From Alphaproteobacteria bacterium (lineage in GTDB: Bacteria > Pseudomonadota > Alphaproteobacteria > UBA828): 64,000 nt of DNA. The position numbers and the translations under genes were made by a program. Every line of letters starts with the position of its first letter. Position 1 is the first letter of the stretch. The notes under the pieces were generated by a model that saw only the letters and a list, made by a program, of their open reading frames with translations, searched no databases and was not told where the DNA came from. Location: positions 3,077,280 through 3,141,279 of the forward strand of contig OZ244839.1 of assembly GCA_965220825.1 (NCBI GenBank). The letters are read 5' to 3'. This document shows positions 5,653 to 41,293 of the stretch, one piece after another.

Positions 5653-6210
5653 ATGAGCCGCTTGTTCACGGCCGTCACGCCGCCGGAGTCCGTTCGCCAG
5701 CAGCTCGCGGGCCTTTGCGGGGGCGTGCCCGGTGCGCGGTGGCAGGATCCGGAGCGGATGCATATCACGCTCCGTTTCATCGGAGAGGTGGACGCCACGG
5801 CCTTCGTCGAGATTCGGGATGCGCTCTCTGATGTGGAAGCGCCGTCGTTCTCCCTCATGCTGGAAGGCGTTGGCTGTTTCCCTCTGCGCGGGCCGGCGCG
5901 GGTGCTGTGGGTGGGTGTTACGCTTGATCCGGCGCTCGCACGCCTGCGCCGCCGCACGGATTCCGCGCTTGCCCATGTCGGATATGGGCCCGAGAGCCGC
6001 AATTTCTCGCCTCATGTCACCATCGCCCGCTTCGCCGCGCGGGCGCCCGCGCGGCGGCTGCGGGAGTTCCTGGCCTGGCATGGGGGTTTCCGCGCGGGGC
6101 CCTTTCCGGTGTGCTCCTTTGCGCTCATGTCGAGCAGCCTCGGTGAGGACGGCCCCCACTACACCACGGAGGCCCGCTATCCTCTTCTCGATGCGGGAGA
6201 GCGTCTCTGA
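5653..6210 (+). CDS. thpR: RNA 2',3'-cyclic phosphodiesterase (2H phosphoesterase, ThpR/LigT)
   Basis: Two H-x-T-x motifs (HITLRF and HVTIARF), about 185 aa, typical LigT architecture. Confidence 0.8.
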   Translation: MSRLFTAVTPPESVRQQLAGLCGGVPGARWQDPERMHITLRFIGEVDATAFVEIRDALSDVEAPSFSLMLEGVGCFPLRGPARVLWVGVTLDPALARLRRRTDSALAHVGYGPESRNFSPHVTIARFAARAPARRLREFLAWHGGFRAGPFPVCSFALMSSSLGEDGPHYTTEARYPLLDAGERL

Positions 6211-12068: not shown

Positions 12069-12164
12069 ATCCCAGCCTTTTGGGGCGCGCCATGCCGCCT
12101 TTGGACGCGCTTCCCTTACCAAGAAACCGTCGTTTCCCGGGCGCCGGGCCGGTACAGTCGCGCC

Positions 12165-12989
12165 ATGCCGGAACTGCCTGAAGTGGAGACCGTTCGCCGG
12201 GGGCTCGCCCAGCGCCTCGCGGGGCGCCGGATCGTCCGCGTCATCGTGCGCCGGCGCGACCTCCGGCGGCCCATTCCGCGGGGCTTTGAGGGCGCGCTGG
12301 AGGGGCGGCGGATCGGCGCGTTCGGGCGGCGGGGAAAATATCTGCTCGCCCATCTGGAGGGGGCGCGCGTGCTTATCGTCCATCTCGGCATGTCCGGGCG
12401 CCTCGCGGTGGTCGAGACCGCGAGCGGCAACCCGCACGAGCATGTGCTCTTTTGCTTTGATGACGGGGCGGTTCTGAGCTTCACCGACCACCGCCGCTTC
12501 GGCTCGATGGACATCGCCGATGAAGGCACGCTCTCGGGCCACGCGCTTTTTCGCCATATGGGGCCGGAGCCGCTCTCGGAGGGGTTTACGGGCGTGCTTC
12601 TGGCCGAACGCCTTCGCGGCAAGAAGACCCCCGTCAAGGCCGCGCTGCTGGACCAGCGCGTGGTCGCGGGGCTCGGCAACATCTATGTCTGCGAGGCGCT
12701 CTATTATGGCGGCGTGAGCCCCCGGCGCAGCGCCCACACGGTGCAGGGCGCGCGCGCGGCGCGGCTCGCCGTCGCGATCCGCGAGGTGCTCGACGCGGCA
12801 ATCGAGGCCGGCGGGTCGAGCCTCAGGGACTATGTTCAGGCGTCGGGCGAGCTCGGCTACTTCCAGCACCGTTTCGCGGTCTACGACCGGCTGGGCCGAC
12901 CATGCCCGGGATGCGATTGCGGCGGCGGCGTGCGGCGCATGGTGCAGAGCGGGCGCTCCACCTTCTATTGCGCGAAGCGCCAGCGATAG
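12165..12989 (+). CDS. mutM: formamidopyrimidine-DNA glycosylase (Fpg/MutM)
   Basis: N-terminal MPELPEVETV (catalytic Pro2/Glu3), H2TH region, C-terminal zinc finger CPGCDCGGGVRRMVQSGRSTFYC. Divergent from ubiE, a common arrangement. Confidence 0.9.
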   Translation: MPELPEVETVRRGLAQRLAGRRIVRVIVRRRDLRRPIPRGFEGALEGRRIGAFGRRGKYLLAHLEGARVLIVHLGMSGRLAVVETASGNPHEHVLFCFDDGAVLSFTDHRRFGSMDIADEGTLSGHALFRHMGPEPLSEGFTGVLLAERLRGKKTPVKAALLDQRVVAGLGNIYVCEALYYGGVSPRRSAHTVQGARAARLAVAIREVLDAAIEAGGSSLRDYVQASGELGYFQHRFAVYDRLGRPCPGCDCGGGVRRMVQSGRSTFYCAKRQR

Positions 12990-13871: not shown

Positions 13872-13921
13872 GCGGCACCGCGATCCGGGCGGCTTTGAAA
13901 ACGCAGAGAGAGAACAGTCAC

Positions 13922-14191
13922 ATGGCGCATTCCCTTCAGGCCAGGAAGCGGGTTAGGCAGAACAAGCGCCGCGCGGCCACCAACCGCGCTCGCATCTCGC
14001 GGATCCGTACCTTCATCCGCCGGGTCGAAGAGGCGATCGCGAGCGGCGACAGGGCGCGCGCCGAACAGGCTCTGCGCGAGGCCCAGCCCGAGATCATGCG
14101 CGGGGTGACGAAGTCCGTGCTGCACCGGCGAACGGCTTCACGCCGGGTTTCCGTGCTCGCGCGGCGCGTGAACGCACTCTCCGACGCCTGA
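13922..14191 (+). CDS. rpsT: 30S ribosomal protein S20
   Basis: [39 protein letters not shown]... classic S20. Chosen start is the second in-frame ATG. Confidence 0.85.
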
Positions 14192-14555
14192 CGGAAACCG
14201 TCGGCCAAACCGGCCGATTCCGGCATTTTGCGCCTTTTCCGGCACCGCTCAATCGATTGCGTGCCGTCCTTCACAGAAGCCGCCAGCGGTGCGGCCCGCG
14301 AATCTTTTTTGTGTTCCGCTTTCGAACCCGTTGTCAGCCCTTTCGCCGCTCATTAATCTGATCGTCATGAGGACGCCGGGGCGTTTCGCACCGGCGAAAT
14401 CAAAAGGCGGTAGTTTCGAGGCGGTACTTTCGAGGATGTGGGCGTCGCGGCGCGGCTCCGCCGGACCGTGACGAGCGAGACCAATCGCGCCGCTTCCGGG
14501 AGGCCGCCGCGGCAGGCGCGAAGGTGTCGGAGGAGGGGCCTCACGTGGAGCACTC

Positions 14556-16049
14556 GTGCGACGGTGCCCCGATGCGGATTGCGGCATCCCCCAGATTGCG
14601 CGGCCTCGTGACCGCGCGCTTTGCTACCGAAGCCTGACCTTGCCCGCCGCCCGACCCTCGCAGAATGCCAACCCCGCATGGGAGCGGATCCGCACACGCC
14701 TGCGCGCCGAGCTCGGAGACAACATCTTTTCGAGCTGGCTTGCACCGCTGACCTTCGATCGCATTGAAAACGGAAGGGTGGAGCTCTCCGCCCCGACACC
14801 TTTCGTGCGTGACTGGGTGGCGTCGCACTATGCGCATCGCATCCGCGAACTTTGGGCGCTCGAGCAGGAGGGCGTCACGACTGTCGACATCGCCGTGGGA
14901 ACGAATGCCCCCGCCGCTCGCCGTTCCGGTTCCGCACCCGCGAGGGCCCGCGGTGGAAGAGGATTGGCCGTCGGCCCATCCTCGGACGCGGAGCGGTCCG
15001 GCGAAGTGGCGAACGCGGGTTCGCCGCTCAACGGGCGCCTCACCTTTCGCGAGTTCGTGGTCGGCAAGCCAAACGAGTTCGCTTACGCCGCGGCCTTGCG
15101 GGTGGCGGAGGCCGATCGTCCTCCGTTCAACCCGCTCTACATCTACAGCGGAGTCGGCCTCGGCAAGACCCACCTCATCCATGCCATCGCCTGGCGGGTG
15201 CAGGAGAGCAACCCCAACCGGCACGTCCTCTATTTGTCCGCCGAGAAGTTCATGTACCACTTCGTGCGGGCGGTCCGGTACAAGGACACGATGGCCTTTA
15301 AGAACTATTTCCGCTCTGTCGACGTGCTGATGATCGACGATGTCCAGTTCATCTGCGGCAAGGACAGTACCCAGGAAGAGTTTTTCCACACCTTCAACGC
15401 ATTGGTGGATCACAACCGCCAGGTGGTAATCGCGGGCGACCGCCCGCCGTCCGATCTGGATGGAATGGAGGAGCGGCTGCGCTCGCGCCTCGGATGGGGG
15501 CTGGTCGCCGATATCCACCCCACCACCTATGAGCTCCGGCTCGGCATCCTTCAGTCGAAGGCGGAGGCCCTGGGCCTCGCCGGCGCTCCGAGGAGCGTGT
15601 TCGAATATCTCGCGCGCCGCATCACCTCCAATGTGCGCGAACTGGAGATGGCGCTGCTGCGCGTCGCTCACCACGCGACATATTTGAATGCGCCGGTGAC
15701 ACTGGAGATGACCCAGGAGGTCATGCGCGATGTGCTGCGAAGCTCCACCCGGCGCGTTACCATAGAGGAAATACAGCGGCGGGTGGCCGAGCATCACAAC
15801 ATCAAATATTCGGAAATGATGTCCAACCGGCGCGCCCGTGCCGTCGCGCGCCCGCGTCAGATGGCGATGTATCTTGCCAAGCAGCTAACGGGGCGCTCGC
15901 TGCCGGAGATCGGCCGCAAGTTCGGCGGGCGCGACCACACCACGGTGATGCACGCCGTGCGCCGGATCGAAGACCTGATGGCGAAGGACGTCGCTATCGA
16001 GGAAGACGTCAAGCTGCTGCGCCGCAGGATCGAAGAGGGAGACGGCTAG
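14556..16049 (+). CDS. dnaA: chromosomal replication initiator protein DnaA (start uncertain; alternative TTG at 14640)
   Basis: W..I..RLRAELGDNIFSSWLAPL N-terminal motif, AAA+ Walker A GVGLGKTHL, Walker B LMIDDVQF, C-terminal DNA-binding helix (RDHTTVMHAVRRIE). Confidence 0.9.
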   Translation: MRRCPDADCGIPQIARPRDRALCYRSLTLPAARPSQNANPAWERIRTRLRAELGDNIFSSWLAPLTFDRIENGRVELSAPTPFVRDWVASHYAHRIRELWALEQEGVTTVDIAVGTNAPAARRSGSAPARARGGRGLAVGPSSDAERSGEVANAGSPLNGRLTFREFVVGKPNEFAYAAALRVAEADRPPFNPLYIYSGVGLGKTHLIHAIAWRVQESNPNRHVLYLSAEKFMYHFVRAVRYKDTMAFKNYFRSVDVLMIDDVQFICGKDSTQEEFFHTFNALVDHNRQVVIAGDRPPSDLDGMEERLRSRLGWGLVADIHPTTYELRLGILQSKAEALGLAGAPRSVFEYLARRITSNVRELEMALLRVAHHATYLNAPVTLEMTQEVMRDVLRSSTRRVTIEEIQRRVAEHHNIKYSEMMSNRRARAVARPRQMAMYLAKQLTGRSLPEIGRKFGGRDHTTVMHAVRRIEDLMAKDVAIEEDVKLLRRRIEEGDG

Positions 16050-28969: not shown

Positions 28970-30151
28970 ATGCGGACCAGCTACGACGTAGTGATTGTAG
29001 GTGGAGGCGTAACCGGGTGTTCCACGGCGGTATTCCTCGCCCGGGAGCCGGGGTTCGACGGAACGATCCTGGTCGTCGAGCGGGATTCCACCTATGAAGA
29101 TGCACCGTCGGCGAAGGCGACGGGCGGATTCCGGCAGCAGTTCTCCACACCGGAGAACATTCGTATGGGCCTGTTCGGAGCCCGCTTTCTTAAGCGGATC
29201 GGGGACTATCTGGCCGTCGACGGCGAGGTTCCGGACGTGGGTTTCCGCGAGAACGGTTACCTGTTGCTCGCGACCCGGGCGATGCTGCCCGTCATGCTGG
29301 AGAACAATGCCTTGCAGCGCGCGCTGGGTGCCGACGTGCACTTCCGTGAATCCGCCATGTTGCAAGCGCGCTATCCGTGGCTCCGGGCGGACGGCTTGGC
29401 CGGCGGGTTTTTGAGCGACAGCAACGAAGGCTATCTCGATCCTTATTCGCTGTTGCAGGCCTATCGGCGCAAGGCGCGGGCGGCAGGCGTCGCGTTCCTC
29501 GAAGACGAGGTGGCAGCACTCAGGCGGGCAAGCGGGCGGATAACGAAGCTGCGCCTTGCCGGCGGCCACGAGATTTCCTGCGGTGCGGTCATTAACGCCG
29601 CGGGTGTCGCCGGTGCGCGGGCGCTCTGCGATTCGGCAGGGCTTCCGCTCCCGGTGGAGTCTCGCAAGCGCTGCACGTTCGCGTTCGAATGCCGCGAGGC
29701 TCTCGCGCCCACGCCGCTCACGATTACCGAGACGGGAGTCGGCTTCCGTTCGGAAGGCGCGGGCTTCATCGTCAACTTTGCGCCGCCGCCCGAGCGGGAT
29801 CCGGATACGCGGGACGACACGGTCGATTACGGTTTGTTCGAGGAGTTCGTCTGGCCGGGGCTTGCGGCGCGCGTATGGCCCTTCGAGGCGATCCGGCTCA
29901 CCGGCGGCTGGTGCTGTCACTACGACTACAACACGTTGGACGAGAACCTGATCGTCGGGCGTCTGCCCGGATATGAGAATTTCTACATGGCGGCGGGTTT
30001 TTCCGGCCACGGGCTGCAGCAGTCGCCGGCGGTGGGGCGCGCGCTGAGCGAGCTCGTCACCTTCGGCGAATATCGTACGATCGACCTCTCGCGCCTCGGC
30101 TATGAGCGCGTGACGACCGGTGCCGCCGTTCGCGAGACGAACTGCTATTGA
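28970..30151 (+). CDS. FAD-dependent oxidoreductase (DAO family; sarcosine/glycine/D-amino-acid oxidase-like)
   Basis: [20 protein letters not shown] Rossmann FAD motif at N-terminus. About 394 aa. In-frame ATG also at 28952. Confidence 0.75.
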
Positions 30152-31112
30152 GGCGAGGGGCCGTGCCGCCGGCCTTCGGCGGCGGATGCCAATGAACGCC
30201 CGCGACGTCGGCATCGACGGTCGTGCCCGCTTCACCCGCCACCAGTGCCGCCAGATCCTCGAGCGCGCTGATCGCCGCCCGCTGGCCTGTGCGCTCGGCG
30301 AAGCGACAGGCCGCCTCCACCTTCGGCCCCATCGAACCTTCGGGAAAGTCCCATTCCCGCATCGCTTCGGGCGAGGCGCTCCGGATCGCCCTGGCCGAAT
30401 CCGAGCCCCAGCCGGCGTAGACCGCGTCCACGTCGGTCGCAAGAACGAGAAGGTCGGCCGCGAGTTCCCGCGCCAGCAATTCGCTCGCGAGGTCCTTGTC
30501 GATCACCGCTTCGATTCCTCGAAGTGCCCCGTCCCCGCCGCGAATCGTGGGGACGCCGCCGCCGCCGGCGCAGATGACGACGGTGCCGTGCTCCAGCAGC
30601 CATTGAACGGGGCGGAGCTCCAGGATGCGTATCGGGCGCGGCGACGGCACCACGCGCCGCCACGCGCCACCGTCCTTTCGCAGCGCCCAGCGTTTCTCCG
30701 CGGCGAGCCGCGCGGCGTTCGCATCGTCGTAGGCCGGGCCGATGAACTTGGTGGGCGCGCCCAGCGCCGGATCGGCGGCATCGACTTCCACCATGGTGAG
30801 GATGGTAGCGATGGCCGTGTCCGGGGGCAGGAGGCTCGCGAGCTCCCGCTCGACCGTGTAGCCGATCATGCCCACGCTCTCGGCGCCCAATATGTCGAGC
30901 GGAAACGCCTCGTCGGGCTTGGCAGCGTCCTCCCGCAGCGCGAGGAGCCCGACCTGGGGACCGTTGCCGTGGGTCACGACGAGCCCGTGCGCCCGTGCAA
31001 GCGGCGCGAGCGCCTCCGCGGCGAGCCGCGCATTCCGGCGCTGTGCGGCCTCCGTCGCCGGCTCGCCGCGGCGCAGAAGGGCGTTGCCGCCGAGAGCGGC
31101 GACAATGCGCAT
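30057..31112 (-). CDS. arcC: carbamate kinase with about 45-aa low-complexity C-terminal extension
   Basis: [18 protein letters not shown].. (amino-acid kinase fold), internal [11 protein letters not shown], typical end motif AGEAGTTV followed by an R/S-rich tail that overlaps the convergent oxidoreductase gene. Confidence 0.8.
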
Positions 31113-31212
31113 GATCAACCCTCCTCGGCCGCCGCAACGGCCCCGGTGGGGCGCGTCCGTCGCTCCGCCGGTCGATATGGTGGGGCTCCGCCCGCCGGTG
31201 CGCTCTTTCCCC

Positions 31213-32442
31213 TCAATCGACCGGATCCCTTTGGAGCGGGCAGGTCATGCAATGGCCGCCGCCCCGCCCCCGGCCCAGCTCGGCGCCGTGGATCGTGATC
31301 ACCTCGACCCCGGCTTTGCGCAACAGCGTGTTGGTGTGGGTGTTTCTGGCATAGGCCACCACGACGCCCGGCTCCAGCGCGAGCAGGTTGTTGCCGTCGT
31401 CCCACTGCTCCCGTTCCCGCTCGTAGCGGTCTCCACCGGTGAAGACCACACGCAGCCTGTCCAGTCCGAGGCAGTCCGCGACCACATCGAAGAGATGGAC
31501 CTTCGTCTGGCGGCAATCGATTTCGTTGTCCGTCGCGCCGGGCCGGAGCTCGTAGCAGACGATTTCGTCGCAGGTCGCCCTGTAGGCCGTCGCAAGGTCC
31601 CGATCGCAAAGCGAGAAGACGGTATCGAGATGCATGGCCGCGTGCGTGATGGGCATCCGGCAGGAGATGACCCTTTCCGCCGCCTCCCGGCGGAAGAGCG
31701 AAAGCGCGATCTGGCCCACCGCCTGGGGTGAGGTGCGCTCCCCCATTCCGACCAATACCGCCCCCCGGCCGATGGGCATCACGTCGCCGCCCTCCACTGT
31801 CGCCGCGCCGTGGTCACGATCCGCATCGCCCCACCAGACGGTGAAATCGGAGTCCTTGAAGTCGGGATGAAACCTGTAGATCGAAGCGACAAGCAGCGTT
31901 TCCTGACGCCGGGCGGGCCAGCGCATGGGGTTGAGCGTCACGCCGCGGTAGATCCAGCAGCTGCTGTCCCGCGTGAAGAGCGTGTTGGGCAATGGCGGCA
32001 GAACGAACCCCTCCGGCCCAAGGCAGCATCCGGTCAGGCCCGTGGGACCGAACGGGAGCTCCTCCGGGGCGATCCCGCCGATCAGGCAGCGGGCCAGTTC
32101 CTCCGCCGGCATGGCGTCGAGCCAGGCGCGGATGTCCGCCAGCATGCCGACGCCCACCTGGTCCGCCGTGATCTTCCGGTCCAGAACCCAGTCTCGCGCG
32201 TCCCGCGCCGCGAGCGTCGTACCGAGCAGCTCGTGCAGGTCGAGAACCGCCACGCCGTGCGCCTTCATCTTGTTGCAGAAGTCGTAATGGTCCGTCCTGG
32301 CCTGTTGCACCCAGAGCACATCGTCGAACAGCAGCGCCTCGCGGTTGCCGGGGGTGAGGCGCTCATGCGCCTTGCCCGGTCGGCAGACCAGCACCTTGCG
32401 GAGCCTGCCGACCTCGGAATGGACGCCGTAGATCTCGGCCAT
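31213..32442 (-). CDS. arcA: arginine deiminase
   Basis: 409 aa. [15 protein letters not shown] start, catalytic Cys block [13 protein letters not shown] near C-terminus. Confidence 0.9.
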
Positions 32443-32473
32443 GGCGGATTCTCGCTGCGGATCCGCGGCCGCG

Positions 32474-33907
32474 TCAGGCGAGCGCGCCCGCGCCCAGCGC
32501 CGCCATGACCATAAGGGTGAGGACGAGGCAGAGCGGCATCACGAAGCGGATCCACCGTTCGTAAGGCACGCGCCCGATGGCGAGACCGCCCATGACCACG
32601 GCGAAGGTCGGGTTGAAGAAGTTCACCAGGCCGTTTGCCGACTGATAGGCGGTGACAACGAGGTCGCGCCCGCTTCCCGCGAAATCCGCAAGCGGCGCCA
32701 TGATCGGCATGGTGAGCACGGCGAGGCCCGAGGACGACGGCACGAAGAACGAAAGCGCCACTTCGATCCAATAGAGGACGATCACGAGCGCCGCCGGCGC
32801 CATGCCGTCCACGGCCTGGGCGGAGTGGTGGAGGATCGTATCGGTGATGCGGCCGGCGTCCATCACCACGACGATCCCCCGGGCCACGCCGATAATGAGC
32901 GCGACGCCCAGCAGACTGCGCGCGCCGTCGACGAACGTCGTGGTGAATCCTTCCTCGCCGAGGCGGCCGATGACGCCGACGAGCATCGCCGAGGCAAGAA
33001 ACAGGGCGGACATTTCGGCCATCCACCAGCCGCCCGACGAGACGCCCCATATCATGGCGCCGAACGTCGCGGCGAAAACGACCAGAACGATCTTGTGGGT
33101 GGTGGTGAACGCGCGGGCCTCGGGCGCGCCGCCGGTCCGCAGGAAATGGGCCTCGTTCGCCTCCTTCCGGTCCGCCACGATGGATTTCGAAGGGTCTTTC
33201 CGCACGCGTTCGGCATAGCGCATCACATAGCCGACACAGACGGCCCAGCCCGCGATCAGGATGGCGAAACGGAGCATGATCCCCTGGGTGAAGGGAATGC
33301 CGGCCGCGTCCGAGGCGATGACCGTCGCGAATGGGTTGATGGTGGAGCCCAGGACGCCCATGGCGGCGCCCAGCATGACGATGGCGACGCCGGTCAGCGC
33401 GTCGTACCCGGCAGCGATCATGACCGGTATGACGATGCCGTAGAACGCGAGGGTTTCCTCCGCCATGCCGTAGGTCGTGCCACCGGCCGCGAAGAGCGCC
33501 ATCAGCACCGGGATCATCCATTTCTCCCGGCCCCGGAGCCTCGCCATGACCCGGGCGATTCCGGCGTCGATGGCGCCTGTCTTGGAGACCACCCCGATGA
33601 AGCCGCCGATCACGAGGACGAAGATCGCGATGTCGATCGCGTTGGCCTGATAGCTTTCGGGGTCGTAGAGCCCGGCTATGGGCGCAAGAATGATCTCCTT
33701 GAGGCCTTGCGGATTGGCCTCGATCTCCTGGTAGGTGCCGGGGACGGGGACATCCCTCTCCAGCGCCTCGTTGAAGGTCCTGTCATATTCGCCAGCCGGC
33801 ACGAGCCAGGTGAGCGCGGCGACGACGACGATCAGGATGAACAGGATGGTGAAGGCCGTGGGAAACCGGATGCGGGTCTTCGCATCGCCGGCGCGCGCGC
33901 TCGTCAT
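32474..33907 (-). CDS. YfcC-family (DcuC-like) membrane transporter, candidate arginine/ornithine antiporter (ArcD-type)
   Basis: About 477 aa from [28 protein letters not shown]; many TM helices. YfcC-family proteins serve as ArcD in several ADI clusters. Adjacent to arcA. Confidence 0.75.
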
Positions 33908-33990
33908 GGCGGCAAGCCCCCCGATAGCGACGCGCGCCTCAGATATGGGAAGGCACGGGAGCCGGAACAAGGGCGTCACGGCATTGCAGA

Positions 33991-34025
33991 CTGTCCCAGT
34001 TCAGACAGGTGCGAGACGCGGCTCT
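33991..34025. repeat. 35-bp copy of IS-left-end-like sequence (ctgtcccagttcagacaggtgcgagacgcggctct)
   Basis: Near-identical to 34156-34194 (ctgctgtgcaagttcagacaggtatgagacgcgtctct), which contains the proposed left terminus of the IS481-family element. Confidence 0.6.
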
Positions 34026-34076
34026 CCAGGCCCGCATGTTTTTGTTTTCGAGGAGAAGAAAAATGCGGGCCTGGAG
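34024..34076. repeat. 53-bp imperfect palindrome (14-bp perfect arms ctccaggcccgcat / atgcgggcctggag around a T-run/A-run spacer)
   Basis: Read directly from sequence. Lies between the two IS-end-like repeat copies, about 120-170 nt upstream of the arcD-like gene start. Confidence 0.7.
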
Positions 34077-34159
34077 ACCCGCGCACCGAAAAAAGCGCCG
34101 CACCCCTGAAAGCGACGGAAGCCCCCGTCGTCTATTTCGTCCCGAACCAGGCCATCTGC

Positions 34160-35281
34160 TGTGCAAGTTCAGACAGGTATGAGACGCGTCTCTTGAAACG
34201 GGGTTGGGGGTCTCCGAAGCTGTTGGTGTAGACACATCAACCTCGAGGAGACCCCCATGCAGGTTCTTGGCCTGCCTCGTCAGATTACACGAGGCGCGCG
34301 GCTCGCGTCGCGTCTTTGCGATGCGCAGCGTAGCGAAGCAGAGCAAAGACGCGACGCGGTGCGTCGTTGGCGCGCTGCCATGGTGGCGGGCCTGACCGCC
34401 GAGGAAGCGGCCCAAGCCATCGGCGTGTCCCGTGCCACGCTCTACCGCTGGAAGAAGCGCTCCGAGCGGTACTCCAGCCGACCGCGGAGGCTGCGAAAGC
34501 CAAACTGGTCGCGGGCTCTGGTCGCCGCCATCCGCGAGATCCGCGCCGACTACCCCATGTGGGGCAAGGCCAAGATCACCGTTCTACTGCACCGGCGCGG
34601 CTTCCAGACCTGCGAAAGCACCGTTGGGCGCATCCTGAAGACCTTGATCGACCGCGGCGAGGTCGTCCCCGTCCCGACACTGCGGCGCAAGGCGCCACGG
34701 GCCTTGCGCCGCACCCGGCCCCATGCCCGGCGCCTGCCCAAGGGCAGAAAGCCCGCACGGCCCGGAGAAATCATCCAGATCGACACCATGACCATCAATC
34801 CCGGCCACGGACGGCCCACCATCAAGCAGTTCACTGCAATCGACCCCATCGCCAAATGGACCTGCGCACAGGCCTGGCGACGCGCAACGGCCCATAACGC
34901 CGCCCAATTCCTCGACAAGCTCCAGGACGACATGCCCTTCCCCGTCAAGGCCATCCAGATCGACGGCGGCGCCGAGTTCAAGGCAAGCTTCGAAACCGAA
35001 TGCCAAAGGCGCGGCATCAATCTCTGGGAGCTGCCGCCCCGATCCCCTGAACTCAACGGTCATGTCGAACGCAGCAACGGCACATGGCGCTATGAGTTCC
35101 ATGCCTCCTGGGAGCTCCCCGACGACCTCGAAGGCCTCAACCGATGGATCGACGCCTTCGCCGACGAGTTCAATACCATCAGACCCAACCAGGCCCTTGG
35201 CGGACAAACACCGGCCGAATACCTTGACAACCTGACAGCAGAAGAAACCACAGCGTCTCAAACGTCCTGAACGAGGACACA
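34160..35281 (+). mobile_element. IS481-family insertion sequence (boundaries approximate)
   Basis: Single DDE transposase ORF. Proposed imperfect terminal inverted repeats TGTGCAAGTTCAGACAGG (left) and reverse complement of CCTGAACGAGGACACA (right: TGTGTCCTCGTTCAGG), both starting TGTG with shared GTTCAG core. About 1.1 kb, typical for the family. Confidence 0.55.
34257..35270 (+). CDS. IS481-family transposase (HTH + rve integrase core, DDE)
   Basis: [27 protein letters not shown] residues in IQIDTMTI / QIDGGAEF / [12 protein letters not shown], 337 aa. Confidence 0.85.
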
Positions 35282-35355
35282 GCCTTGAATTCGGGGGGCG
35301 CTGCGAGTACAAAGCGTCCGCCGCACGCGCCTCCGGGACCGGCGACGGGGAAGAC

Positions 35356-35553
35356 ATGTCCAAGCTCAAGACCAAAAGCAGCGCCAAGAAGCGGTTTTCC
35401 GTGACCGGACGGGGCCGGCTTCGGCGGCGCGCGGCCTTTCATCGCCACAACCTCACCAAGCGGGCGAAAAAGGTGAAGCGCAACCAGCGCGGCGCGCGCG
35501 GGCTGGCGGCTTCGGATGCGGCGCTGATGAAGCCTTTCCTGCCTTACCTCTAG
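35356..35553 (+). CDS. rpmI: 50S ribosomal protein L35
   Basis: [39 protein letters not shown]... classic L35. Confidence 0.85.
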
Positions 35554-35570
35554 AACGGCGGACCGGATCC

Positions 35571-35936
35571 ATGGCACGGGTGAAGAGGGGCGTCGCAGCC
35601 CACGCGCGCCACAAGAAGGTGCTCAAGATGGCGCGCGGCTATCGCGGCCGGGGCCATTCAAGCTACCGCGTGGCGCTCGAGCGGGTCGAGAAGGCGCTGC
35701 AATATGCCTACCGCGACCGCCGTACCCGCAAGCGCCGCTTCCGCGCGCTCTGGATTCAGCGCATCAACGCGGCGGCGCGCGCGCATGGCGTCACCTATTC
35801 GGAGCTGATGCACGGCCTGTCGCTCGCCGGCGTGGAGGTCGACCGCAAGGTTCTCGCGGATCTCGCCGTGCGCGAACCCGCCGCCTTCGAGGCGGCCGTG
35901 GAGCAGGCCCGCGCCGCCCGCGGCGCGTCCGACTGA
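35571..35936 (+). CDS. rplT: 50S ribosomal protein L20
   Basis: [47 protein letters not shown]... classic L20. Confidence 0.9.
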
Positions 35937-35979: not shown

Positions 35980-37056
35980 GTGGACGATCTGAATTCCCTT
36001 CGAGAGGCGTTGCTGGAAGCGGTCGCCGGCGCGGCGGACGGCGCCGCCCTCGAGGAGGCCCGCATTGCGGCGCTCGGCAAGAAGGGTCGGCTTACCCAGG
36101 CCATGAAGGGGCTGGGCGCGCTCGATATCGCGCAGCGCAAGGAGGTTGGCGCCCAACTCAACCGTATCAAGGCCGATGTGGCGGAGGCGCTCGATGCACG
36201 CCGCGCCGCGCTGGAGGCGGACGCCCTCGAACAGCGGCTTGCCGCCGAGCGCGTGGATGTGACGCTGCCGCCGCGCCCGCAGCCTACGGGCGCCATACAT
36301 CCCATCAGCCGGGTGCTCGACGAGCTGATCGGCATTTTTGCCGGCATGGGCTTTCAGGTCGCCGACGGGCCGGATATCGAGGACGATTTCCACAATTTCA
36401 CGGCGCTCAACATCCCGCCTGAACACCCGGCGCGCCAGATGCACGACACCTTCTATCTTGCGCCCGACGAGGCGGGCAGGCACCCGCTGCTGCGCACCCA
36501 CACGTCGCCGGTGCAGATCCGCAGGATGTGTGCGGCGCCGCCGCCCCACCGGATCATCGCGCCCGGCCGCACCTATCGCTGCGACTACGACATGACGCAC
36601 ACCCCCATGTTCCACCAGATCGAGGGGCTGGTCGTCGACGAGCACACCCATATGGGCCATCTCAAGGGCTGTCTGATCGATTTCGCCCGCGCCTTCTTCG
36701 AGGTGGAGAAGCTGCCGGTGCGGTTCCGCCCGAGCTACTTCCCCTTCACCGAGCCCTCCGCCGAGATGGATATCGGCTGCTCGCGGGAAGGCGGCGTCCT
36801 GCGCATCGGCGAGGGCGCGGACTGGATGGAGATCCTCGGCTGCGGCATGGTGCACCCCAAGGTCCTGCGGAATGTGGGCCTGGATCCGGAGCGCTATCAG
36901 GGGTTCGCCTTCGGTCTCGGCGTCGAACGCTCCGCCATGCTGAAATACGGCATCCCGGATCTCCGCGACTTCTTCGACACCGATATGCGCTGGCTCCGCC
37001 ATTACGGCTTCGCCCCGTTCGATGCGCCGGCGCCGGCCTCCGGTCCACAGGCATGA
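35980..37056 (+). CDS. pheS: phenylalanine--tRNA ligase alpha subunit
   Basis: 358 aa, class II aaRS motifs (FRPSYFPFTEPSAEMD, GCGMVHPKVL), follows rplT. Confidence 0.9.
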   Translation: MDDLNSLREALLEAVAGAADGAALEEARIAALGKKGRLTQAMKGLGALDIAQRKEVGAQLNRIKADVAEALDARRAALEADALEQRLAAERVDVTLPPRPQPTGAIHPISRVLDELIGIFAGMGFQVADGPDIEDDFHNFTALNIPPEHPARQMHDTFYLAPDEAGRHPLLRTHTSPVQIRRMCAAPPPHRIIAPGRTYRCDYDMTHTPMFHQIEGLVVDEHTHMGHLKGCLIDFARAFFEVEKLPVRFRPSYFPFTEPSAEMDIGCSREGGVLRIGEGADWMEILGCGMVHPKVLRNVGLDPERYQGFAFGLGVERSAMLKYGIPDLRDFFDTDMRWLRHYGFAPFDAPAPASGPQA

Positions 37057-39458
37057 AGTTCACCCTCTCCTGGCTCAAGACCCATCTGGAGACCGATGCG
37101 CCGCTCGTGGAGATCGCCGAGACGCTTACCGCCATCGGCCTCGAGGTGGAATCGGTTTTGGACCGCACCGCGGCGTTCGCACCCTTTACCGTGGCCCATG
37201 TGATCGAGGCAGGGCCCCATCCCAACGCGGACAAGCTGAAGCTCTGCCTCGTGGATACGGGCGAGGAGCGGGTGGAAGTAATCTGCGGCGCCCCCAATGC
37301 GCGGACGGGCATGAAGGGGGTCTTCGCCCCGGTGGGCACCACAATCCCCGGCACGGGAGTCAAGCTAAAGCGCGCGAAAATCCGCGGTGTCGAGAGTTGC
37401 GGCATGCTGTGCTCCGAGCGCGAGATGGGCTTGAGCGACGAGCATGAGGGGATCATGGAGCTGCCCCAGGATGCGCCACTGGGCGCGCCGTTCGCTGCCG
37501 TCATGGGTCTCGACGATCCGCTGATCGAGATCGCCATCACGCCCAACCGCGCCGACTGCCTGGGTGTCCGCGGTATCGCGCGGGACCTCGCGGCGGCCGG
37601 CATCGGCCGGCTCAAGCCGCGGCAGATCGCGCCCGTCCCCGGGGTGTTTCCGAGCCCGGTGGGAATCCACCTGCGCTTTCCGGAAGAGGCGCGGGATGCC
37701 TGCCCGCTCTTTCTCGGGCGCTACATTCGGGGCGTGCGCAACGGCGAGAGCCCTCGCTGGCTGCAGGAAAGGCTGAGCGCCGTGGGCCTGCGTCCCATCT
37801 CCGCCCTGGTGGACATCACCAATTTCCTCACGCTGGACGAGAACCGCCCCGCGCATGTCTTCGACGCGGACAAGATCGCAGGCGACCTCTGGGTGGCGCT
37901 CGGGCAGGGCGGCACGCAGTTCGGCGCACTCGACGGGAAGACATACGAGATCGACGACGAGATGACGGCGATCGGCGACGACACCGGCATGCTGAGTCTT
38001 GCCGGCGTGATGGGCGGCGAGGCCTCGGGCTGTACGGCGGAGACCGTCAACGTCTTCATCGAGATCGCACTGTTCGATCCGCGCCGGACTGCGGCGACCG
38101 GGCGCAAGCTCGCCGTGGAAAGCGATGCTCGCTACCGCTTCGAGCGCGGTGTGGATCCGGCGTTCGCGGAACCGGGCATGGAGCGCGCGACGCGCCTCGT
38201 GCTCGATCTCTGCGGCGGTGAGGCCAGCGACGTTGTGGTGGCGGGCGCGGCGCCGCCGCTGCCGCGACCGATTGCGTTCCGCCCCTCGCGGGTCGAGGCG
38301 CTCGGCGGTGTCGCGGGTGCGGGCGGACGCGCTCAGGCGGTCCTGGAGGCCCTCGGTTTCGCCTGTACGCCGGAAGGCGACGACGCCATGACGGTGACCC
38401 CGCCCACCTGGCGGGGCGACGCGGAGGGAGAGGCGGATCTGGTCGAAGAGGTACTCCGAATCGAGGGTTTCGACCGTATCCCCGCGGTCTCGCTGCCGAG
38501 GCCCGAAGGCGAGGGCGCGCGGCCGCCGGAGACGCTCCTGTCCCGGACGGGCGCGGTGCGGCGGACCCTTGCGGCCCGCGGCATGCTGGAGGCGGTGACC
38601 TGGTCGTTCCTTCCGCGCCGGCAGGCGGCGCTCTTCGGCGGCGGTGCGGAGTCGCTCAGGCTCGAGAACCCCATCAGCGCGGATCTGGACTACATGCGGC
38701 CCTCGATCCTTCCCAATCTCGCCGCCGCCGCCAAGCGCAATGCGGATCGCGGCATGGCGGACGCGGCGCTCTTCGAGATCGGCCCCTGCTACGAAGGCCC
38801 GGGCGAGGATGGCCAGCGCCTTGCGGTCGCGGCCCTGCGCGCGGGCAGGACGGTCCCCCGCAACTGGTTGGGGCCCGCGCGCGCGGTGGATGCGTTCGAT
38901 GCCAAGGCGGATGCGCTGGCCGCGCTGGAGGCGGCCGGCGCGCCCGCGGACCGCCTCAGGACGGAGGTGACGGCGCCCGGCTGGTACCATCCCGGGCGCG
39001 CCGGTACGCTGGCGCTCGGGTCTACCGCGCTTGCCTTCTTCGGCGAACTGCACCCGACCGTTCTCAAGGCGCTTGACGCGGAGGGTCCCATGGCGGGTTT
39101 CGAGGTTTTGCTGGACGCCTTGCCCGCTCGCAAGGCCAAGGCGAGCCGGGCCCGGCCGGCGCTTCGGGCTTCCGATTACCCGGCGGTGGAGCGGGACTTC
39201 GCGTTCGTGCTCGATGCCGCGGTTCCCGCCGCCGAGGTGGAGCGCGCCGTACGCAATGCGGACAAGACGTTGATCGCGAATGTCGGGATCTTCGACCTGT
39301 ATGACGGCGAGGGCGTCGAGCCCGGCAAGAAGTCGCTCGCCGTGGCTGTGCGCCTCGAGCCGCAGGACCGCACGCTCACCGATCCCGAGATCGAGGCGGT
39401 GGCCGGGCGTGTCGTTGCCAATGTCGAGAAGACCGTCGGCGGCACGCTTCGGCGCTGA
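37053..39458 (+). CDS. pheT: phenylalanine--tRNA ligase beta subunit
   Basis: 801 aa, [33 protein letters not shown] start, tRNA-binding, B3/B4, B5 and FDX-ACB domains. ATGA overlap with the pheS stop. Confidence 0.9.
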
Positions 39459-39490: not shown

Positions 39491-41293
39491 ATGACCGCGC
39501 TCGCGCATATCCGCAACTTTGCGATCGTCGCTCATATCGACCATGGCAAATCGACCCTGGCCGACCGCATGATCGAGCGCTGCGGCGGGCTCGATAAGCG
39601 GGAGATGACCAGCCAGGTGCTCGATTCCATGGCGATCGAGCGCGAGCGCGGCATCACCGTGAAGGCGCAGACGGTGCGGCTCGTCTATCCCGCCGGCGAC
39701 GGCATCCCCCACATGCTCAACCTGGTGGATACGCCCGGCCATGTGGACTTCTCCTACGAGGTCAGCCGCTCGCTCGCCGCGTGCGAGGGCTCGCTCCTGG
39801 TGGTGGACGCGACCCAGGGCGTCGAGGCACAGACCCTCGCCAACGCCTATCAGGCGGTGGAGCACGACCATGAGATCGTTCCCGTGCTCAACAAGATGGA
39901 CTTGGAATCGGCGGAACCCGAGCGGGTCAGGCGTCAGATCGAGGACGTGATCGGGATCGATGCGAGCGATGCCATCGAAGTTTCCGCCAAGACCGGCCGG
40001 GGTGTGGACGACGTACTTCGCGCGCTCATCGCCCGCCTGCCTCCGCCGGCGGGCGATGCCGACGCGCCGCTCAAGGCTCTGCTGATCGATAGCTGGTACG
40101 ACCCCTATCTCGGTGTGGTGGTTCTGGTGCGGGTGCTGGACGGGCGCGTATCCGCGCGCATGCGCATCCGGATGATGGCGTCGGGCGCCGAGCACGAGGT
40201 GGAGCGCGTCGGCGTGTTCACGCCCAAGAAGACGCCGGTGGAAAGCTTAGGTCCCGGCGAGATCGGCTTCCTCACCGCTTCGATCCGCGAGGTGGCGGAC
40301 TGCGAAGTGGGCGATACCATCACCGCCGCCCGGCGCCCGACGGCGGCGGCGCTGCCGGGTTTTCGCCCCAGCGTTCCCGTTGTCTTCTGCGGCCTCTTCC
40401 CGGTGGATTCCGGGGATTACGAACGGCTGCGGGAGGGTCTGGCCCGGCTGCGGCTGAACGATGCCAGCTTCCATTTCGAGGCCGAGACGTCGCCGGCCTT
40501 GGGCTTCGGCTTCCGTTGCGGCTTCCTCGGCCTGCTGCATCTCGAGATCGTGCAGGAGCGGCTCGAGCGGGAGTTCGGGCTCGACCTGGTGGCGACGGCG
40601 CCGAGCGTGGTCTATCGCCTCGCTCTCACGGACGGCGAGGAGCGCACCATCCACAATCCGGCCGACATGCCGGACGCAACCCGTATCGCGCGCGTGGAGG
40701 AGCCCTGGATCCAGGCCACGATCCTGGTGCCCGATGCGAATCTGGGCGGGGTGCTCGCGCTCTGTGAAGAGAAGCGCGGGATCCAGGTGAACCTCACCTA
40801 TGCGGGCAGCCGCGCCATGGTGGTCTACGAACTGCCGCTCAACGAGGTGGTGTTCGATTTCTACGACCGGCTGAAATCGGTCTCGCGGGGCTATGCGAGC
40901 TTCGACTACCGTTTCGAAGCGCATCGCGAGAGCGATCTCGTGAAACTCTCCATCCTGATCAACGGCGAGCCGGTGGAATCGCTTGCGCTGATCGTTCATC
41001 GGAGCCAGGCGGAGAAGCGCGGCCGGGCGCTCTGTCTGCGGTTGAAGGCGCTGATTCCGCGCCAGCTCTTCAAGATCGCCATCCAGGCCGCGATCGGGGG
41101 GCGCATCGTCGCGCGGGAGACCGTGAGCCCGCTGCGCAAGGACGTGCTGGCCAAGTGCTATGGCGGAGACGTCTCCCGCAAGCGGAAGCTGCTCGAGCGC
41201 CAGAAGCGGGGCAAGAAGCGCATGCGCCGCATCGGCAATGTGGAAATCCCGCAGGAAGCCTTCCTGGCCGCCCTCAAGATGGAGGAATCCTAG
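39491..41293 (+). CDS. lepA: elongation factor 4 (LepA)
   Basis: [24 protein letters not shown]-domain. 600 aa with conserved LepA C-terminal domain ([18 protein letters not shown]). Confidence 0.9.

Follow-up and report, generated by a model that had tools for sequence, protein, structure and literature searches.

The 64-kb stretch of contig OZ244839.1 analysed here, which we call the window, comes from an uncultured, Rhodospirillales-like alphaproteobacterium and carries, directly in front of the ribosomal protein gene rpmI, an insertion sequence (IS) that resembles the IS481 family. To the right of the IS lie rpmI, rplT, pheS, pheT and lepA; to its left are a short derivative of a related IS and then an unrelated arginine deiminase (ADI) cluster. 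In a first-pass annotation, made from the letters of the stretch, the IS was said to occupy the position of infC, the gene that normally precedes rpmI, and the insertion was thought perhaps to have separated or removed the native rpmI promoter and leader. The right end of the element lies five bases upstream of a promoter-like motif that IS-free relatives share, and we report that the same register recurs across the clade to which the element belongs.

The IS element and its family

That an IS481-like element precedes rpmI was borne out by the alignment of copies, by the domains of the transposase and by the family model. Clustered at 90%, the transposase falls into a group of five near-identical proteins, and one of these led to three more copies of the IS at unrelated sites (L083-L085; here and below, L numbers denote retrieved loci or contigs and P numbers denote protein entries). 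When these three copies are aligned with that of the window, the common stretch runs from TGTGCAAG to GAACGAGGACA (longer ends, TGTGCAAGTTCAG... to ...CCTGAACGAGGACA). The left end had already been placed exactly, but the right end is at 35279 and not, as first proposed, at 35281, so the distance to the rpmI start codon becomes 76 nt rather than 74 nt. The left and right inverted repeats (IRL and IRR), which start with TGTGCAAG and TGTCCTCG, respectively, both open with 5'-TGT and have the core GTTCAG...TGAGACGC in common (Table 1).

The transposase has Pfam HTH_23, HTH_32, rve and rve_3 domains, and its residues D176, D236 and E271 are conserved in our transposase alignment, A4. Its gene is oriented in the same direction as rpmI, just as had been stated. 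The best NCBIfam model is IS481 (NF033577, E = 4e-51), with a score of 174 bits where the curated cutoff is 224, and the IS3 model comes a distant second with 90 bits. Like IS481 of Bordetella pertussis and ISRme5 of Cupriavidus metallidurans, the element is about 1.1 kb long (1120 bp, the family lying at ~0.95-1.3 kb), is present in multiple copies, begins its terminal repeats with TGT, and has a single DDE open reading frame (ORF) of 337 aa with no frameshift, an N-terminal helix-turn-helix (HTH) region, an rve core and a stop codon within the right repeat. The 5-bp target-site duplications described below also fall within the range of the family (2-15 bp, mostly 6 bp), although the window copy itself has none. 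We regard the element as IS481-like by structure, with a sequence score that stays under the NCBI family cutoff; a Thermaceae relative is named by PGAP merely 'integrase core domain-containing protein'.

The transposases of the four same-organism copies are 99.7-100% identical although the copies lie at different loci, and at least two more variants (P0122 and P0124) are coded on the 3.28-Mb source contig. We are thus dealing with a genuine and recently mobile IS. Perfect 5-bp duplications flank the three other copies (CGTCC, GCATT and CTTCG), whereas the check for a duplication around the window copy, which the first-pass annotation had proposed, was negative (TCTGC on the left versus CAGCC on the right). 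The organism is also found in two ENA long-contig assemblies (L001 and L002, 99.9% identical to the window). A blastn search of plasmids with the IS DNA gave no match; with the transposase protein, there was no match among phages, and only Thermaceae relatives were found among plasmids. The source genome contains a second IS type of the same clade, the transposase of which (P0002) is 79% identical to that of the window. An IS of the P0002 type also lies at L087:3900-5012, in another sample, on a contig with TraI/TrwC relaxase genes and another transposase, a setting that suggests spread by a plasmid or an integrative and conjugative element.

A fixed register with promoter motifs

The right ends of all three sister copies are followed by five bases and then by a pair of hexamers at a spacing of 17 nt. 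After the terminal ...GGACA and 5 nt, the sequence reads GTGCGC-N17-TATACT at L083, TTGCCG-N17-TACCCT at L084, where dctP lies downstream, and TTGACG-N17-TATCTC at L085. The 79%-identical IS type at L087 stands in the same register, with the right flank GGGTA-TTGATT-N17-TAGATT.

A metagenome scan with alignment A4 yielded 80 further loci with transposases 40-57% identical to that of the window. For every copy the right end of the IS was set by the conserved terminus of the right repeat (...ACA) alone, with the flanking sequence left unused. There were 57 distinct right flanks of at least 45 nt, and 64 once seven loci had been added (L168 and the P0048 IS); these 64 independent copies, with transposases 38-100% identical, range from Alphaproteobacteria to Thermaceae. 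TTG was seen at +6 to +8 in 48 of the 57 flanks, with 0-6 occurrences at other offsets, and in 54 of the 64 (binomial P ~5e-60). At a spacer of 16-18 nt, TANNNT was present in 33 of the 64 flanks compared to 2% in a shifted-register control, and even among the ten flanks that have no TTG, five have TANNNT in register (P ~8e-7 against the 2% control). The resulting position matrix, with C at +5, T-T-G-A/C-C-a from +6 to +11 and T-A-n-a-a-T from +29 to +34, reads as that of a sigma-70 promoter with a 17-nt spacer. The left flanks served as a control: among 42 of them TTG occurs no more than 2-3 times at any single offset, and their information content is negligible except at the last duplicated base.

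Perfect 5-bp duplications were also seen at L103, L125, L134, L152, L159, L171 (CGATC) and L168 (GGATG), which brings the total to ten copies. The last of these is a 38%-identical element on a finished plasmid of Allomeiothermus silvanus; GGATG stands on both sides, and TTGGCA-N17-TATGAT and a co-oriented gene follow. Four further copies are present on the same plasmid, pMESIL01. Genomes with many copies also lie behind the protein clusters P0005 (114 members), P0008 (55) and P0084 (29). Where the assembly is good, the promoter motif is followed after 50-180 nt by the start of a co-oriented gene or tRNA, and the protein genes found there are rpmI, dctP, FMN_dh, SBP and DUF308, with an SBP gene in A. 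silvanus as well. At four loci what comes first downstream is a tRNA gene in the same orientation (Lys, L098:1172-1247; Leu, L099:1706-1790; Arg, L100:1733-1809; Ala, L114:1204-1279), so the clade would often sit before strong housekeeping promoters. The transposase gene and the promoter motif are co-oriented across the clade, and both register and orientation are fixed over independent insertions. As a rule, it appears, this clade places its right end five bases upstream of a promoter -35 and does so in a single orientation.

Many IS elements carry outward-facing promoters, ISEcp1 and IS481 among them, and the motif does follow the element in most copies; the promoter could then be a part of the mobile element, with the IS boundaries misplaced. 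We find this scarcely credible. Identical copies in one genome diverge completely straight after ...GGACA, the perfect 5-bp duplications enclose the element but leave the promoter outside, and IS-free relatives have the rpmI motif at the orthologous site. Because of these three observations, the putative promoter is best assigned to the target site and not to the IS.

Selection after random insertion is another way in which copies could come to lie upstream of genes, if those copies were kept for a beneficial outward transcription. Retention of this kind has reportedly occurred with IS481 in Bordetella, and three of the four copies here are closely followed by a co-oriented gene. Elements of the IS481 family are also known to be juxtaposed to coding sequences and to affect the expression of their neighbours (PMC13548323). 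However, selection cannot give a register of a single nucleotide, such as that of TTG at +6, and the register holds across phyla and in front of unrelated downstream genes, including tRNAs. We therefore consider retention bias alone to be highly improbable.

We suggest that the transposase, or its complex with both IS ends, would recognise the promoter as a unit when a target is chosen. The likeliest form of such a target would be promoter DNA occupied by the RNA polymerase holoenzyme, or the DNA shape that the holoenzyme imposes. Strand transfer would then be staggered by 5 bp at about -40/-36, with fixed polarity, through a copy-out-paste-in pathway that we assume from the related IS3 and IS481 families. 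A site just outside the core promoter would be a low-cost 'safe haven', and weak transposase transcripts could read into the host gene. Docking on the promoter complex is favoured by the in-register -10, which is 23-29 bp away from the integration point and is kept even where the -35 is poor. It is a tentative possibility that the clade, in Alphaproteobacteria, Thermaceae and low-GC lineages, uses sigma-70-type promoters, likeliest when occupied by polymerase, as an integration beacon with fixed polarity at about -40/-36.

In a less likely variant, the transposase would read the -35 (C-TTGAC) directly, and purifying selection would remove other insertions. Targeting by sequence only, through a word of approximately C-TTGAC, with purging of genic insertions and with RNA polymerase uninvolved, is in our opinion somewhat unlikely. 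TTG is present in ~90% of flanks, above what natural promoter collections have, while the -10 is weaker, and the C at +5 lengthens the word. Both the TTG frequency and the ordinary HTH DNA-binding domains of the transposase, with no sigma region 4 signal, favour direct reading of the -35. On the other hand, half of the TTG-less flanks keep their -10 in register, as described above, and the spacer before the -10 has a fixed length of 17 +/- 1 nt. Moreover, all four near-identical, recent copies are intergenic and in register with -35-like and -10-like hexamers. When the two IS ends were abutted and inspected by eye, no convincing -35/-10 pair at 16-18 nt was seen across the junction.

Overall, we consider it probable that this IS clade homes to promoters, that the core promoter, the leader and the genes of the rpmI locus were spared, and that the IS need not have split the operon. 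Several points weigh against such a reading. Approximately ten of the 64 flanks have no TTG, and five of these have no promoter-like pattern of any kind. Most of the short metagenome contigs have no matching 5-bp duplications, which we attribute to chimeric assembly across the repeat, a fault that was shown directly for one IS. The -35, with ~90% TTG, is more conserved than in typical promoter sets and the -10 less so, as would also be expected if the -35 sequence were recognised directly. The N-terminus of the transposase has no similarity to sigma-70 region 4 in Pfam, even at E <= 1; mimicry of this region by the transposase was considered and, for want of that support, dropped. Copy-out-paste-in is taken over from related families, and the rpmI 'promoter' is proposed from consensus and conservation, its -10 in the window (TACAAA) failing TANNNT. 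Finally, although no published account of promoter-register targeting was found in the open-access literature, ISfinder, TnPedia and subscription journals lay outside that scope, and an earlier mention there is possible. The promoter-register specificity of this large IS clade is apparently undescribed.

The chimeric case concerns short contigs from Logan. The left flank of L177 (TCAGC) is the right flank of L179, and the same IS on the long contig L171 has its perfect CGATC duplication. Such short-read contigs thus connect the left flank of one insertion with the right flank of another, and a missing duplication in short metagenome contigs is therefore no evidence of rearrangement.

The putative rpmI promoter and the separation of infC

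The nearest species representatives of the organism (L003-L005) have PheS proteins 78-79% identical to its own. When the window was compared with their infC-rpmI spacers, a conserved block was found, CC-TTGAAT-N17-(GAG)TACAA-GCG..CGCC, which a short leader separates from the ATG. In the window it begins at 35283-35285, and its -35-like hexamer is 5 nt past the end of the IS; in the IS-free relatives TTGAAT and TACAAA are invariant or nearly so and stand at the same distance from rpmI. A strict sigma-70 scan rejects TTGAAT-N17-TACAAA, since its -10 has A and not T as the sixth base; the 17-nt spacing is within the 16-18 nt that we used as a criterion. The leader, of ~40 nt, folds no more stably than shuffled sequence (z = +1.1), and a search of the IS and leader region against Rfam brought up no relevant RNA family. 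The proximal promoter-like element and the leader of rpmI appear to be intact and not replaced by the IS. The suggestion that the native promoter and leader had been removed does not hold for these proximal parts, since both are retained, starting 5 bp past the IS.

No terminator-like site was found by a sequence scan between the stop codon of the transposase and rpmI, so transcriptional read-through from the IS into rpmI is possible. Three changes are expected at this locus: transcription from thrS and infC would have been lost, along with whatever else lay farther upstream, the DNA upstream of -36, with any UP element, would have been replaced by IS DNA, and some read-through from the IS might have been added.

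A separate motif upstream of rpmI, GG[CT]ATGCC, was seen in 58 of 73 alphaproteobacterial relatives (L006-L082), with one hit in a control window. Its distance to the rpmI start is 47-68 nt (L034:9150-9250 is an example); complementary GC-rich arms enclose it, and a CTATAA box precedes it. Rfam 15 gave no match at E <= 1 for the one locus tested, and the motif is absent from the window and from L003-L005. It may be an uncurated autoregulatory leader for L20/L35.

As the first-pass annotation had assumed, infC does normally precede rpmI, insofar as the order thrS-infC-rpmI-rplT-pheST is intact in all three nearest relatives, with 183-371 nt from the end of infC to rpmI. It had also reported that no infC fragment is visible, and we agree: tblastn with the initiation factor 3 (IF3) of E. 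coli and with that of the organism itself found neither the gene nor a fragment in the window. Two of the checks that it proposed proved informative. The organism's own IF3 (P0130, which the 3.28-Mb source contig also codes) was found at another locus, L086, directly after thrS and with no IS nearby; there the stop codon of infC is followed, 31 nt on, by the end of a convergent glutamine amidotransferase (GATase) gene. A comparison of ORFs with L003-L005 by blastp showed a shared gene order that begins with rpmI and extends to lepA, with no synteny on the upstream side. The ancestral cluster is split between infC and rpmI in the lineage of this organism, and rpmI-rplT-pheST-lepA now stand behind the IS and beside the unrelated ADI cluster.

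Such a split is not peculiar to this lineage. A PheS scan, with one genome per species, returned 80 loci, and among 75 relatives infC is adjacent to rpmI in 26, 0.5-2.5 kb away in 14 and farther off in 4; there is none within at least 5 kb upstream in 19, and 12 were left unassigned. The linkage of infC and rpmI has been lost repeatedly in Alphaproteobacteria. The protein collection contained no strain or species at least 90% identical for PheS, L35 or ADI, and no empty-site yfcC-rpmI allele was found.

Did the IS itself cause the separation? It may have landed or recombined at the infC-rpmI junction and displaced infC together with the native promoter and leader, such that rpmI-rplT-pheST would depend on IS transcription. 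The gene order of the three nearest relatives and the break of synteny at the IS agree with this, as does the absence of a terminator-like site between transposase and rpmI. The window copy is, unlike the three others, without a duplication, which is the signature expected after recombination between two ISs. Nevertheless, we think this reading, in so strong a form, unlikely. The conserved promoter-like element and leader still stand directly after the IS, while next to infC, on the other side of the break, no IS is present and the convergent GATase gene follows. Among the copies retrieved, which do not include two on the source contig, none is the reciprocal one with CAGCC on its left and TCTGC on its right. 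The stretch of intergenic DNA before the -35 cannot be aligned even among L003-L005, and the end of homology at the IS is therefore weak evidence; infC-rpmI linkage is, moreover, often lost in Alphaproteobacteria. The earlier statement that the IS occupies the position of infC is thus right in that synteny breaks there. It misleads in that this clade sits in such a register before promoters generally, so that the loss of infC need not be invoked to explain why an IS lies at the rpmI promoter.

The new neighbourhood of infC has a history of its own. In the relatives L182 and L183 the GATase gene is followed by a flavoprotein gene (L182:8937-10326), whereas here the GATase gene abuts infC (L086:10490-10520). 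An orthologue of the flavoprotein (73% identical) lies immediately to the left of the IS copy at L083 (L083:5139-5729), a copy with a perfect duplication, and this second synteny break of the organism, between GATase and flavoprotein, thus also has an IS of the clade beside it. A two-step model, with an inversion between infC-rpmI and GATase-flavoprotein and then an exchange between the window IS and that of L083, was rejected because L083 has its perfect CGTCC duplication.

A miniature inverted-repeat transposable element (MITE)-like derivative of a related IS sits 5 nt upstream of the full IS. The IRL-like end of this derivative is 86% identical to the left end of the IS over 35 nt, the pattern matching only these two sites in the window, and its IRR-like end matches the IRR consensus of the clade at 18 of 25 positions (compared by eye). 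Taken as one unit, the MITE, TCTGC and the IS are flanked by CAGAC and CAGCC, which match at 4 of 5 positions (chance ~0.02). Such a match fits the movement of a tandem array, as a unit, into a pre-existing yfcC-rpmI junction, and composite transposition of this kind would argue, if anything, against a split caused by the IS. The pair suggests tandem homing to one promoter, with composite movement being possible. The solo IRL-like repeat at 33992 was also considered as part of the second IS type (P0002), but this was rejected, as the left end of P0002 differs.

The palindromic repeat within the MITE-like derivative (~76 nt, with arms CGCGGCTCTCCAGGCCCGCATGTTT and AAAAATGCGGGCCTGGAGACCCGCG) is scattered through intergenic regions of the organism. 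Other sites are L085:4240-4317, 5703-5739 and 12160-12238 and L086:7708-7778, with partial copies in L083 and L084. It resembles a repetitive extragenic palindrome or a bidirectional terminator, and it caused spurious Rfam miRNA hits at 34017-34084.

On the far side of the MITE and IS, the gene first called arcD-like is indeed present, beside the genes for ADI and carbamate kinase; by PF03606, however, its product is a carrier of the DcuC/YfcC family. The NCBIfam model for YfcC, a putative basic amino acid antiporter (NF008611), gives it 297 bits, which is under the cutoff of 500. In the window, then, arcA and arcC (30057-33979) are paired with a DcuC/YfcC-family carrier and not with a canonical ArcD-type antiporter. 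Gene calling divided both the carrier gene and lepA of L001 in two (L001:6905-8337 and 13921-15201), although each is intact in the window. There are seven gap openings over 14 kb between L001 and the window, and the split calls are thus probably indel errors of long reads.

Table 1. Features around the IS481-like element (positions in the window)
Feature	Position	Strand	Remarks
Carbamate kinase (arcC-like)	30057..31118	-	Pfam AA_kinase; clustered with ADI and the YfcC-like carrier
Arginine deiminase (arcA)	31213..32442	-	Pfam ADI, E = 2e-123
DcuC/YfcC-family carrier	32474..33979	-	PF03606, E = 1e-118; start given by gene callers, 33907 (L002)
MITE-like derivative of a related IS, 163 bp	33992..34154	+	IRL-like end 33992-34021; palindromic repeat 34017-34092; IRR-like end 34130-34154
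TCTGC, 5 nt between MITE-like element and IS	34155..34159	.	Left flank of the IS; differs from right flank CAGCC
IS481-like insertion sequence	34160..35279	+	1120 bp; ends from the alignment of four same-organism copies
Left inverted repeat (IRL), TGTGCAAGTTCAGACAGGTATGAGACGC	34160..34187	+	Copy alignment
DDE transposase, 337 aa	34257..35270	+	Stop codon (35268-35270) within IRR; identical to P0123
Right inverted repeat (IRR), reverse complement TGTCCTCGTTCAGGACGTTTGAGACGC	35253..35279	-	Copy alignment
CAGCC, 5-bp target position beside the -35	35280..35284	.	Would be one copy of a target duplication
Native rpmI promoter-like element	35285..35313	+	TTGAAT 35285-35290, 17-nt spacer, TACAAA 35308-35313
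Short rpmI leader, kept	35314..35355	+	Aligns with relatives L003-L005
rpmI (L35)	35356..35553	+	ATG at 35356; Pfam Ribosomal_L35p
rplT (L20)	35571..35936	+	Pfam Ribosomal_L20
pheS	35980..37056	+	Pfam tRNA-synt_2d
pheT	37053..39458	+	Gene call and Pfam families in L001; syntenic with relatives
lepA	39491..41293	+	ORF call; final gene of the block syntenic with relatives

Known systems and significance

Within the IS481 family, members often lie near neighbouring genes and in the same orientation (PMC13548323), and most of them make a target duplication of 6 bp (PMC10045372). This clade duplicates 5 bp, and its putative target is a promoter register, in contrast to the short words reported as targets for IS481 and ISRme5. 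The word for IS481 is NCTAGN. That of ISRme5 is a 6-bp motif (PMC4803752). Large surveys have found IS481 elements juxtaposed to genes, without a description of a -35 register (PMC13548323, PMC9208149).

The nearest precedent in the superfamily for directional, site-specific insertion is the ISAba32 subgroup of the IS481-related IS1202 family, which targets XerCD sites and for which a safe haven has been discussed (10.1101/2022.12.17.520857). ISAba32 likewise has an IS481/IS3-related DDE transposase, TGT ends and short duplications, and it abuts a site bound by protein in one orientation. Its transposases are only distantly related to those of this clade, however, and it is the IRL of ISAba32 that abuts a dif-like xrs site, whereas here the IRR abuts what would be the -35 of a sigma-70-type promoter.

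In eukaryotes, Ty3 and Ty1 of yeast and TRE of Dictyostelium integrate at Pol III promoters and tRNA genes, at a fixed upstream position and with the gene spared, and are believed to be steered there by the transcription machinery. These are long terminal repeat (LTR) or non-LTR retroelements, and the integrase is tethered to TFIIIB/TFIIIC. The fixed site upstream of a transcription unit and the 'safe haven' logic are common to both cases, and some copies of our clade also lie before tRNAs; the difference is that we are concerned with a bacterial DNA transposon, with a putative contact to RNA polymerase.

The E. coli cluster thrS-infC-rpmI-rplT-pheST has internal rpmI promoters and L20 autoregulation, with a long-range L20 operator within infC. 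Its gene order is that of the three nearest relatives, and a promoter-like element is found in their infC-rpmI spacer as well. In the window, by contrast, infC is unlinked, and the short leader has neither significant structure nor an Rfam match; an L20 operator of the E. coli type, within infC, cannot exist here in that form.

Locally, the rpmI locus is a case of ordinary genome evolution, in which a conserved translation cluster has been split, an IS stands where it broke and the genes have retained a putative promoter of their own. It carries a warning for annotation, since in this clade the location of an IS directly before a gene reflects the element itself and is no evidence of displacement. 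The general pattern is unusual: a whole IS clade appears to stand in single-nucleotide register with the promoter -35, in the same direction and across phyla.

If this reflects true target choice, it would be a class of target specificity new to bacterial transposons, with promoter homing as a safe haven, and it would raise the mechanistic question of how the transposase finds its site, by reading DNA or by docking on RNA polymerase or sigma. Should polymerase indeed be the beacon, the clade would be the bacterial DNA-transposon counterpart of Ty3-type targeting, and a promoter beacon would also explain tandem or composite arrays such as the MITE and IS before rpmI. True target choice could have practical uses too, as a possible scaffold for tools that insert DNA close to promoters. 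It would predict effects on UP-element function and read-through into housekeeping genes and tRNAs, and each insertion would be an organism-independent marker of a real promoter in uncultured bacteria.

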